From: Mobula hypostoma
Lineage: Eukaryota
NCBI RefSeq assembly: GCF_963921235.1
Contig: NC_086108.1
Span: forward strand, 73,596,001 to 73,660,000
Reading direction: 5' to 3'
Length of the DNA: 64,000 nt
The notes under the pieces are model-generated. The model saw only the letters and a list, made by a program, of their open reading frames with translations. It was not told the origin of the DNA and made no database searches. Positions 16,601 to 19,760 of this stretch are shown piece after piece (positions within the stretch are counted from its first letter, which is position 1; every line of letters starts with the position of its first letter). A program made the translations under genes and the position numbers.

Positions 16601-19600
16601 TCTTCACGGCAAAGCCGGCACCATGTTCTCTGGTCTTGTCTGAGCCCTTCCCCTGCCAGAAGAAGGTATAGTCTCTTTCACGAAGGGTTCCCGATTCTGC
16701 GAGACATGTCTCTTGAAGCGTTGTGATGTCCACTTGGAGTCTCGACAGTTCATTGTTAATCACTGCTGTCCTGCGTGTGTCGCTGATCTTCTGAAGGTCA
16801 TCTGATATATCAGTGGTCATGGTCCGTATATTCCAGCATCCTAGTCTGAGTGCTGGCTTCTTTCTTTGTCTTCTAGTTGTGCTTGGTGCAGCGTTCACAG
16901 TCCGCAGTTCAGGCTACTTGTATCCCTAAGCCCCACGCACCCAGAGGAGCGGGCGGACTGCGGCGGGACAGCACCTAATTGGCTGGGGGCTGCCCAGCTT
17001 GAGGTGGGCGGTAGCTGTCCAGTGAGACATGATGGTCTCTCCCTCCGTCGAAAGCAGCCCCTGGCACCTTGCTCTACGCCAGTTGAGCGCAGGCTTATAA
17101 CCGATAGACTGCTGCTTTCCGTGTTATGCCATCGCGGTGAGGCGACGCTGGAATGTCCTCTCCAGGGCGCAGGCCTGGGCAAGGTTGTATGGAAGATCAG
17201 CAGTTGCCCATGCTGCAATTCTCCCCTCTCCACGACACCGATGTTGTCCAAGGGAAGGGCAAGGGCCGATACAGCTTGGCACCAGTGTCGTCACAGGAGG
17301 TGCCAGAATGAGGTTGAAGGCAACGTCAGACTGCCTCAGGGACTCCAGCACTGGATTTGTCCTCAGGGTTTACTCCCGAAGTCTTTCCCATCAGCAGGTA
17401 TGACCACAAGGCAGCGGAGGTTTGAAATCAGAGTTTTCCCTCTCTTAGATGGACTGCCCTCCCAGGCTGATGAGCTCCATCTACCCAAAGCACTGGTTTT
17501 AAGGGGCGAGGACCCGCCTTCGCTCCTTCTCCTGTCAGTACAAACAGTTTATTTTAATTTCAAAATATACTTTATTCAAAAATAAATATATACAATAAAC
17601 CATTCAATAACTTTTCATCCTTTACATACGTTTCCATTATAGTCAGTACATATCCGTATTTATAGCCACCCACGTGGCACTGCAGTAGTTCAGCTTACCA
17701 TATCATTGTTGAGGGGTATACTCCCCGCCCACCGACCACCCCCCCCCTCCCACTCCCACGGGTGGAGAAACTCATACTGTGGCCCTTGCGGTGGCTGCAC
17801 CGAGTTTCAGTGCGTCCCTCAGCACGTACTCCTGCAGCCGAGAATGTGCCAGTCGGCAGCATTGTCCCACGGACATCTCCATGTGCTGGTAGATCATCAA
17901 GTTTCGGGCCGACCAAAGAGCATCTTTCACCGAGTTGATGATCTGCCAGCAGCACCGGATGTTGGTCTCCATGTGCGTCCCCGGGAACAGCCCGTAGATC
18001 AGAGAGTCCTCTGTTACGCAGCTGCTGGGGATAAAACGTGACACTAGCCCGTCCATCCTCCTCCACACCCTCTTTGCGAAATGGCAGTGTGCAAAGAGGT
18101 GGGTCACAGACTCCTCCTCACTGCAGTCCTCCCGCGGGCAGTGGGGTGCGGAGACGACGTTCCGGGTGTACAGGAGGGCTCTGAGTGGGAGGGCCCCTTG
18201 GTGCCTGTTGGTGAGATCTTGCGATGAGGCATTTTGCCAGATGAACTGGACAGTCTGCTCAGGGAACCACCCCACTGTGTCCATCACGTCCTTCTCCTGC
18301 AGTGCCTGCAGGACACTACGTGCCGACCACTGCCTGATGGCCCTGTGGTCAAAGGCGTTCTCCTGGAAGAACATTGCTACGTAGGACAGGTATGCCGGCA
18401 ACGACCAGCTGACTGGGACGTTGCGCGGGAGTGGGGCCAGACCCATCCTTCGTAGCCAGGGCGACAGGTAGAACCTGGGCACATAGTGGTACTTGGTGCC
18501 CACATACCTGGGTTCTACACGCAACCTGATGCAGCCACATACGAAGCTGGCCTTCAGGGTGAGGGCGACATTGGGGACGTTCTTTCCCCCGTTGTCCAGG
18601 GACTTGTGCATGACGGTCCATCTCACCCGCTCCATCTTGGATCCCCAGACGAATCTGAAGACAGCCCGGGTGATTTCCAAGCTGTAGGAGCGGGGGACGG
18701 GCCAGACCTGCGCCAAGTACAGCAGCCCTGAGAGCACTTCACACCTGATGACCACACAGTCCCAGTTTCTGTTTCACCTTGGCAGTCCGCTCCTGCCAGT
18801 TCTTGTTGCACGCCTCCACCCCTCCAAACCAGATCCCCAACACCTTCACGTGGTCAGACCTGATGGTGAAGGGGACATTGGATCGGTCGGGCCAGTTGCC
18901 GAAGAGCATGGCTTCGCTCTTCGCGCGGTTAACCCTGGCCCCCAACGCTAGCTCGAACTGTTCACAGGTGCCAATCAACCTGCGAACTGACCTCGGATCA
19001 GAGCAGAAGATGGTGACATCGTCCATGTACAGGGAGGTTTTCACTTGGGTCCCTCCACTGCCTGGCAGCGTCACCCCTCTTATGCCCTCATCCCTCCTGA
19101 TGGCTTCAGCAAAGGGTTCTATGCAGCAGGCAAACAAGACAGGGGAGATGGGACAGCCCTGCCTGACTCCAGACCTGATGGGGAAGCTGTCTGTTTCCCA
19201 CCCGTTGACTTGGACTGCACTATGGATGTCTTTGTAGAGCAGTCTAATCCAATTCCGGATTCCCTCCCCAAATCCCATTTTGGAGAGCACGTCCGCCATG
19301 TACGTGTGCGATATCCTGTCGAAGGCTTTCTCCGGGTCCAAGCTGACCAGGCAGGAATCCACCCCCCTGTCCTGCATGTAGGCGATGGTGTCCCTCAGCA
19401 GCGCGAGGCTGTCTGAGATCTTCCTGCCCGGTACAGCACAGGTTTGGTCTGGGTGAATCACCTGTCCTAGCGCAGACTTGACCCTGTTGGCGATAGCCTT
19501 GGACAGGATCTTGTAATCCACATTCAGGAGAGAGATGGGTCTCCAATTTCTAATGTCCTCCCTTTCCCCCTTCTGCTTGTAGATGAGGGTGATGATGCCC

Positions 19601-19760
19601 TTCCTCATGGACTCAGACATACTGCTGCTGGGCTTAGAGCCTAAGCCACACGAGAAGGCCAGGAGTTGAACTTGGTTGTCAGAGGCATGCCGTGAGGAGC
19701 ACTTTTAGGTAGTGGGAGCTTGTCCCCACTACCACTCCTCGGCTTGACAACCTTGGAACC
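13655..19760 (-). mobile_element. Full-length RTE-clade LINE (single APE-RT ORF, now frameshifted) with a Tx1 insertion in its 5' UTR
   Basis: APE start LRLGCWNIRT...LQET (16898 downward); RT YRGISLLS, FIDFTKAFD, GVKQGCVLAP, LFADD; C-terminal CTRCSRDCHSRVGLYSHNRCC; (ACC)n tail; perfect 11-bp TSD AGGAGTTAGTT at 13644-13654 and 19761-19771. Confidence 0.92.
17550..19624 (-). mobile_element. 5'-truncated Tx1-clade (L1 superfamily) LINE
   Basis: NWRPISLLNVDYKIL, EKAFDR, GVRQGCPISP, LYMDD, CCHC finger CPREDC...HLFAHC; AATAAA plus A-rich tail at about 17550-17576. Confidence 0.9.

Follow-up and report, generated by a model that had tools for sequence, protein, structure and literature searches.

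A candidate HDV-like ribozyme with a hairpin in L3 and without P4 at the 5' end of an RTE retrotransposon family

The RTE element and its interrupted 5' head

The window, the whole 64,000-nt stretch of DNA analyzed in this study, belongs to an animal genome of 3.48 Gb and contains a full-length but decayed LINE on its minus strand. The element runs from 19760 to 13655 and is flanked by two identical copies of an 11-bp target-site duplication (TSD), AACTAACTCCT, located at 19761-19771 (5' copy) and 13644-13654 (3' copy). Downstream of the 5' head, the rest of the element (13655-17528) consists of a long 5' UTR, a frameshifted endonuclease-reverse transcriptase (RT) ORF, and an ACC-type tail. 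The ORF has an RVT_1 domain match, and its homologs are ~1040-1100 aa long with PF03372, PF14529, and PF00078 (endonuclease and RT domains); the best named homolog is a sawfish protein with 85% identity. The element shows the features of RTE membership (a single ORF with APE endonuclease and RT, a microsatellite tail, and a TSD), and we take it to belong to the RTE clade from this anatomy of endonuclease-RT ORF, ACC tail, and TSD.

The head of this element is split by a 5'-truncated non-LTR insertion (17550-19624, minus strand) with RT, zf-RVT, and an A-rich tail, an anatomy that fits the Tx1 clade. Targeting of the head by Tx1 was ruled out: only one of the 25 Tx1 3' ends, the window's own, lies inside an RTE head, and the split is therefore regarded as an accident. 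At one of these 25 loci, a U2 snRNA-like sequence (Rfam, 53 bits; L227:1367-1499, minus strand) adjoins the 3' tail of the Tx1-type copy. A long inverted repeat (11696-12025 versus 13610-13654 plus 19761-20075, with pieces 83-88% complementary) holds the RTE itself in one of its arms and is probably an older repeat or DNA element interrupted by the RTE. At 9365-11700, the window holds clustered copies, both direct and inverted, of a further repeat, of the Penelope type, whose C-terminal frame is GIY-YIG-like.

The first-pass annotation, made from the window copy alone, had proposed that the head forms an HDV-like ribozyme when the insertion is removed, and all of the strands that it listed were found on the minus strand exactly where it had placed them. 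The 5' strand of P1, GGTTCC (19755-19760), is flush with the TSD; its first base, G1 (19760), is the first base of the RTE and the predicted cleavage site. J1/2 (19666-19754) is a structured domain with nested helices at 19752-19745/19681-19674 and 19733-19725/19716-19708 (strands GGTTGTCA/TGACAACC and GGTAGTGGG/CCCACTACC), and carries a 12-nt deletion in the window copy. It is followed by the 5' strands of P2 (CTCCTG, 19660-19665) and P3 (GCC, 19657-19659). The 5' part of L3, TTCTCGTGT (19648-19656), comprises, in HDV numbering, U20 U21 C22 N23 C24 G25 and a UGU linker; U20, C22, C24, and G25 are the conserved L3 residues given in an excerpt of PMC6326823. The 3' part of L3 forms an extra 7-bp hairpin, GGCTTAG/CTAAGCC (19631-19647). 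A single C, the 3' strand of P3 (AGC; GGC when intact), and the first two bases of the P1 3' strand (AG; GG when intact) occupy 19625-19630. On the other side of the insertion are the remaining P1 3' strand AACT with G38, the P1.1 partner of C22 (17545-17549), a 6-nt unpaired link TTTGTA in the place of P4 (17539-17544), J4/2 CUGA (17535-17538), with the predicted catalytic C75 at 17538, and the P2 3' strand CAGGAG (17529-17534). The window copy is thus broken by two CpG decays and, as the annotation had recognized, by the 2.07-kb Tx1-type insertion (19624-17550) that splits the P1 3' strand, and it would be inactive.

Intact copies of the head

A genome search with the 5' half of the element yielded 2601 first-look candidates, of which 40 were scored and 30 fetched (29 besides the window). 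All 29 other loci are continuous across the insertion point, with scattered CpG losses. The intact sequence reads CTCCTG, GCC, TTCTCG TGT, GGCTTAG cct CTAAGCC, C, GGC, GGAACT, G, TTTCTA, CTGA, CAGGAG. Since uninterrupted copies have GGC GGAACT G TTTCTA, the two G>A changes in P3 and P1 of the window copy are losses, confirming the suggestion that these mismatches arose by CpG decay.

The HDV strand order with pairable partners, broken in the window copy, is present in the uninterrupted copies: P1 GGTTCC/GGAACT with G1·U, P2, P3 GCC/GGC, the U20·G25 pair, the 7-bp hairpin after G25, a P1.1 of one pair plus U·U, no P4, and J4/2 CUGA. The intact copies supply the GGC and GGAACY partners on which the annotated fold depends; the GGAACY pairing stands, although most copies read GGAACT-G, with a G1·U wobble, and not GGAACC-G as had been supposed. 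Folding prediction gave hairpin pair probabilities of 0.95-1.0 in family A, the family of the window copy. Copies were also present in contig sets of four organisms, where sequencing depth starts in the bin containing G1, an observation that shows presence only.

5' ends and copy anatomy

The 5' ends were examined in a sample chosen without the head, by a search with the downstream UTR (17150-17500; 5095 candidates, 29 other loci). Twelve of these loci start at +1, eight at +2, and three at +3, whereas three start at +7 to +14 and three are truncated further in (one of the last, L048, is the same element as L026). With 23/29 starts at +1 to +3, the 5' ends cluster at G1 and do not show the heterogeneity that would have spoken against the annotation; the bases upstream of the head are unrelated between copies. 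Of 19 copies, seven had the TSD flush with G1 (one of them with only 6 nt) and four more had it within 3 nt; in the other eight it was not found. An extra G at -1 would suggest a copied cap, as in L1. Such a G is present in just 5 of 55 copies, and there is thus no sign of a cap-copied base. The probability that the first six bases, defined independently in this way, pair with the P1 3' strand by chance is ~1 in 1000 (hand arithmetic assuming uniform bases).

A sharp start alone is no proof of cleavage, because another RTE family, D, starts sharply without a recognizable HDV fold. Family D (L087, L091, L098, and L189-L208 from genome G000; L158 and L159 from a metagenome; 1729 candidates) begins at a structured head of another kind, which includes a conserved block also present in the metagenomic relatives. 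This head had no Rfam match and no HDV fold by eye, and may be a further self-cleaving motif or a promoter. The metagenomic RTE relatives L107, L139, L119, L120, and L127 carry other structured 5' heads again, with no Rfam match for the heads of L107, L119, and L127.

Among 58 family A loci analyzed by BLAST, 44 join ~550 nt of the 5' end to ~55 nt of the 3' end, seven continue into the ORF, and seven do neither; the window copy is the long form, not a miniature. The joints are not the same in different copies (L002-L060) and often fall at short shared words, as if each miniature arose afresh through a template jump during insertion. The joint regions correspond to 17190-17100 and 13750-13655 in the window; close by, 17166-17158 and 13710-13702 could form a 9-pair helix between the two ends, and another, longer match of 11 is at chance level.

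Diverged families and covariation

Diverged relatives are a fair test of the structure, since only the window copy had been used to propose it. A protein search of the genome identified RTE lineages at ~45-64% identity, and 40 upstream stretches with follow-up yielded families B and C; a metagenome scan (63 loci) added families E (L137 and L155-L157) and F (L111). Pairs were counted by family (n = 56 for A, 18 for B, 25 for C, 3 for E, and 1 for F) as majority pairs by pairwise projection, with family E being 3-4 near-identical contigs with one common flank and family F one decayed copy that lacks the P1 5' strand and is the sole copy with a different P1 3' strand.

In family A, U20 is present in 54/56, C22 in 54/56, C24 in 48/56, and G25 in 50/56 copies, with losses mostly of the CpG type, and the four residues are similarly kept in families B, C, and E. 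G1 pairs with a pyrimidine at the base of the 6-bp P1, with G1·U as the majority pair in families A, B, C, and E. The C22-G38 pair of P1.1 is present in 54/56 copies of A, 17/18 of B, and 25/25 of C, and the second P1.1 position is U·U in these families and C-G in F. J4/2 conforms to C-N-R-A (CUGA in A, B, C, and F; CUAA in E), and the C at the catalytic position is kept in 101/103 copies overall (56/56 in A, 18/18 in B, 23/25 in C, 3/3 in E, and 1/1 in F). P4 is absent in all five families, in which a 5-6-nt unpaired link (TTTCTA / TTCTCA / TTCCA / GCACCA across families) takes its place, and the hairpin is present in A, B, C, and E, in agreement with the annotated variant with a hairpin at L3 and hardly any P4. 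L3 is 27 nt long, outside the standard 7-9 nt.

Three diverged families keep the hairpin, and in two of these both strands have changed: U-A to A-U, along with G-C to G·U, in family B, and C-G to U-A in family E. Family C has a U-A to U·G change, and the loop varies freely (CCT/TTC/CTA). The element that the annotation had singled out as extra thus covaries, with two-sided change at two pairs, across families that it had not seen. Of P1, P2, and P3, for which it had proposed a covariation test, P2 has one two-sided change (C-G to U-A in family C). The change in P1 is one-sided (U-A to U·G in family B) and P3 does not change between families, so that the pseudoknot itself is without two-sided covariation; all three helices pair in families A and B. 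The J1/2 helices have two-sided changes in B, E, and F. Core differences between families B and A fall on 4/38 paired and 7/24 unpaired positions. In a 16-copy alignment, from which P1 was left out because MAFFT shifted it by one column in families B and C, 95.1% of the cells were paired, compared with 36-52% in slid controls and 92.0% in shuffled controls; the excess over the shuffles is inflated by relatedness, as related sequences can beat shuffles without structure. Nine pairs in this alignment show two-sided change, two of which are in the hairpin. The outer J1/2 helix of B is broken by one A·A, P2 of E by a C·A, and the inner J1/2 helix of E at two pairs; the C·A majority in P3 of family C is a CpG site in a sample drawn with a decayed query.

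The metagenomic family F copy lacks exactly the 20-nt insert; it has a 7-nt L3, C-G at the second position of P1.1, and no P4. This U·U to C-G replacement is the one coordinated change in P1.1, observed in one copy. Another locus, L104, appears by eye to have a normal-looking core with a real P4; a P1 partner led by G1 was looked for there and not found. Since the backbone of the endonuclease tree (from which L155 was left out as too short) is open, gain and loss of the hairpin and P4 cannot be polarized. In this tree, the endonuclease downstream of a hairpin-type head (L099/L088) groups with L104, whose head has a normal P4, with strong support, a hint in the sequences that heads were swapped between RTE lineages. 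Family E heads, which are from environmental marine-type assemblies, are ~81% identical to those of family A over 180 nt, and from this similarity horizontal spread is possible.

Detectability

Standard HDV descriptors expect a short L3 of 7-9 nt. Among 106 relative loci, a descriptor of this kind gave no match, whereas one with an extended L3 (10-45 nt holding a hairpin) gave 11. Neither matched the window as it stands, and neither gave a match in 3000 dinucleotide shuffles (2.7 Mb) of the locus stretch holding the head. The Rfam library, which contains drz-agam models, returned chance matches only for 16500-20500 of the window and nothing for the intact copy L016 or for 18 loci. As Rfam also misses the normal-looking core of L104, this blank is not specific to the hairpin; the annotation's remark that standard descriptors could miss the motif therefore holds for the 7-9-nt L3 descriptor (0/106), but the Rfam blank says less. 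Run over the window and 67 loci, a covariance model (R1) gave matches at E<0.01 only in the two window halves and in families E and F. The exact motif pattern had no match in viral and prokaryote collections. Protein scans gave nothing in viral contigs and four short loci, all without the head, in prokaryote assemblies, and the descriptor, applied to sequence upstream at 54 of the 63 loci from metagenomes, gave two loose, probably chance matches.

Discussion

Ruminski et al. reportedly described HDV-like ribozymes at RTE 5' ends in 2011. Excerpts of the papers cited here count RTE among six LINE clades with 5' ribozymes (PMC5786205) and treat RTE ribozymes as already published (cited in PMC5786205, PMC6765202, and PMC3774820). 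We propose, with a probability of about 85%, that the 5' head of the present RTE family adopts the HDV double pseudoknot without P4 and with a conserved 7-bp hairpin in L3, and that it likely self-cleaves just before G1. This cleavage would free the element RNA from host read-through transcripts, as excerpts describe for HDV-like ribozymes and retroelement co-transcripts (PMC6765202 and PMC3383444). By analogy with HDV-family chemistry, in which the cut is made before G1 with C75 as the general acid (excerpts of PMC6326823 and PMC13635239), C17538 would serve as general acid together with Mg2+, and the product would be an RNA with a 5'-OH that begins at G1. This end would then be reached by target-primed reverse transcription, and new copies would begin at G1. 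The hairpin would project from the core on the 3' side of L3, following the U20·G25 pair; together with the structured J1/2, it would aid a core without P4 and with one Watson-Crick pair in P1.1. From one outgroup copy and an open tree, the hairpin may compensate for the missing P4 and the weak P1.1. In excerpts of the literature, P4-less ribozymes are active (PMC10879173), a U·U pair in P1.1 is compatible with fast cleavage (PMC13635239), and a structured J1/2 speeds cleavage (PMC4908430).

For the isolated core of families A and C, the predicted minimum-energy fold is a nested alternative in which L3 pairs with the 3' strands of P3 and P1 (-20.9 kcal/mol in family A versus -15.4 kcal/mol for the nested part of the native fold, before the -6.3 kcal/mol of the P1 duplex). 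This alternative could slow or gate cleavage. It would also suit an unlikely explanation, in which an internal polymerase II promoter at G1 sets the 5' end and the fold is non-catalytic or vestigial, a stack of nested hairpins serving translation or RT binding. Family D starts sharply without this fold, and L1Tc uses the same bases as a promoter (excerpt of PMC3383444), so that a promoter may coexist with cleavage. The promoter explanation, however, leaves unexplained why the first six bases are complementary, with G1·U, to the strand after P3, and why U20, C22, C24, G25, G38, and C-N-R-A are kept across families; the extra G at -1 is also missing. Furthermore, the pairs of the nested alternative are broken by eye in family F, which keeps two P3 pairs and gains the C-G pair in P1.1.

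The placement of P3 within an HDV-like fold is a separate question. GCC is able to pair with either GGC, and if P3 used the first (19647-19645), L3 would be a near-normal 9 nt and the extra sequence would be a J3/1 linker between P3 and P1, an element named in the C. briggsae structure (excerpt of PMC13635239); the 20-nt gap of family F is compatible with both placements. We consider this arrangement very improbable, as the first GGC is held in the hairpin with a pair probability of ~1.0 in A, C, and E, and in E the C of this GGC and its hairpin partner change jointly (C-G to U-A), whereas the second GGC directly abuts the P1 3' strand and, CpG decay aside, is conserved in every family. A chance arrangement assembled across an insertion, for which the absence of the motif from the window as it stands would speak, has a negligible probability and is refuted by natural uninterrupted copies that show the motif without joining and by the blank shuffles.

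The proposed ribozyme shares its position at base 1 of an RTE-clade LINE, its helix order, and its predicted cut at the 5' junction with the RTE ribozymes of Ruminski et al. 2011, as those are described in excerpts of the citing papers, and appears to differ from them in the absence of P4 and the presence of the 7-bp L3 hairpin. The drz-Agam-2-1 ribozyme of mosquito (excerpt of PMC4908430) likewise connects P1 to P2 through a large structured J1/2 domain (P1.2), but its P2 has 12 bp, compared with 6 bp in the window family, which also lacks P4 and has an expanded L3. The L1TcRz/Pr77 and R2 ribozymes (excerpts of PMC3383444 and PMC3774820) likewise define or free the 5' end of their elements, and L1TcRz/Pr77 also occurs on short non-autonomous derivatives (NARTc), like the short copies of the window family. 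They belong to other LINE clades, however, and their length variation is in J1/2 and L4, with none described in L3 in these excerpts.

Minimal (P4-less) HDV-like ribozymes were reportedly described by Riccitelli in 2014 (cited in PMC6326823). These and the theta ribozymes (excerpt of PMC10879173) share the short unpaired link in place of P4 and the C-N-R-A J4/2 with the window family. According to the same excerpt, ~99% of them are from gut phages, often beside tRNAs, and a search in eukaryotes (human, mouse, and protists) is reported to have given no matches. In contrast to this context of phage genomes and adjacent tRNAs, the window family is at the head of a LINE in an animal genome; its candidate copies number in the thousands, and it has the L3 hairpin and a long J1/2 domain. 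The CPEB3 ribozyme keeps P4. It and the Ackermannviridae HDV ribozymes resemble the window family in a P1.1 of one Watson-Crick pair plus U·U or another non-standard pair, whereas both have a short L3 and are not retrotransposon heads, and the Ackermannviridae ribozymes keep P4 (excerpt of PMC13635239).

At the sequence level, the family has every feature of HDV-like membership except L3 length; P1 and P3 are without two-sided change, and catalysis is predicted. We found no description of an L3 hairpin, or of a P4-less form with one, in excerpts of the literature on L3 insertions and HDV-like ribozymes, a set without the papers of Ruminski (2011), Webb (2009), and Webb and Luptak (2011). A ribozyme at the 5' end of RTE is thus known, and the P4-less form with an L3 hairpin is apparently new. 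Descriptors and Rfam models would miss this form because they assume a short loop of fixed form for L3, which makes up half of the active site in HDV. More tentatively, and in our view doubtfully, it may represent a distinct HDV-like subclass in which the helix grafted onto L3 replaces the stabilizing role of P4, the first P4-less family in animal retrotransposons and a swappable head on several marine-animal RTE lineages, invisible to current descriptors.

The biological role in question, trimming of LINE RNA, is already known. If the head cleaves, it would reveal a new place where the HDV fold tolerates a whole helix and would extend P4-less ribozymes from phages to animal retrotransposons. 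It would also provide a natural series on peripheral helices, from hairpin with weak P1.1 (A, B, C, and E), through no hairpin with strong P1.1 (L111), to P4 (L104). If such a distinct subclass is real, animal genomes hold many more self-cleaving RNAs that go unnoticed.
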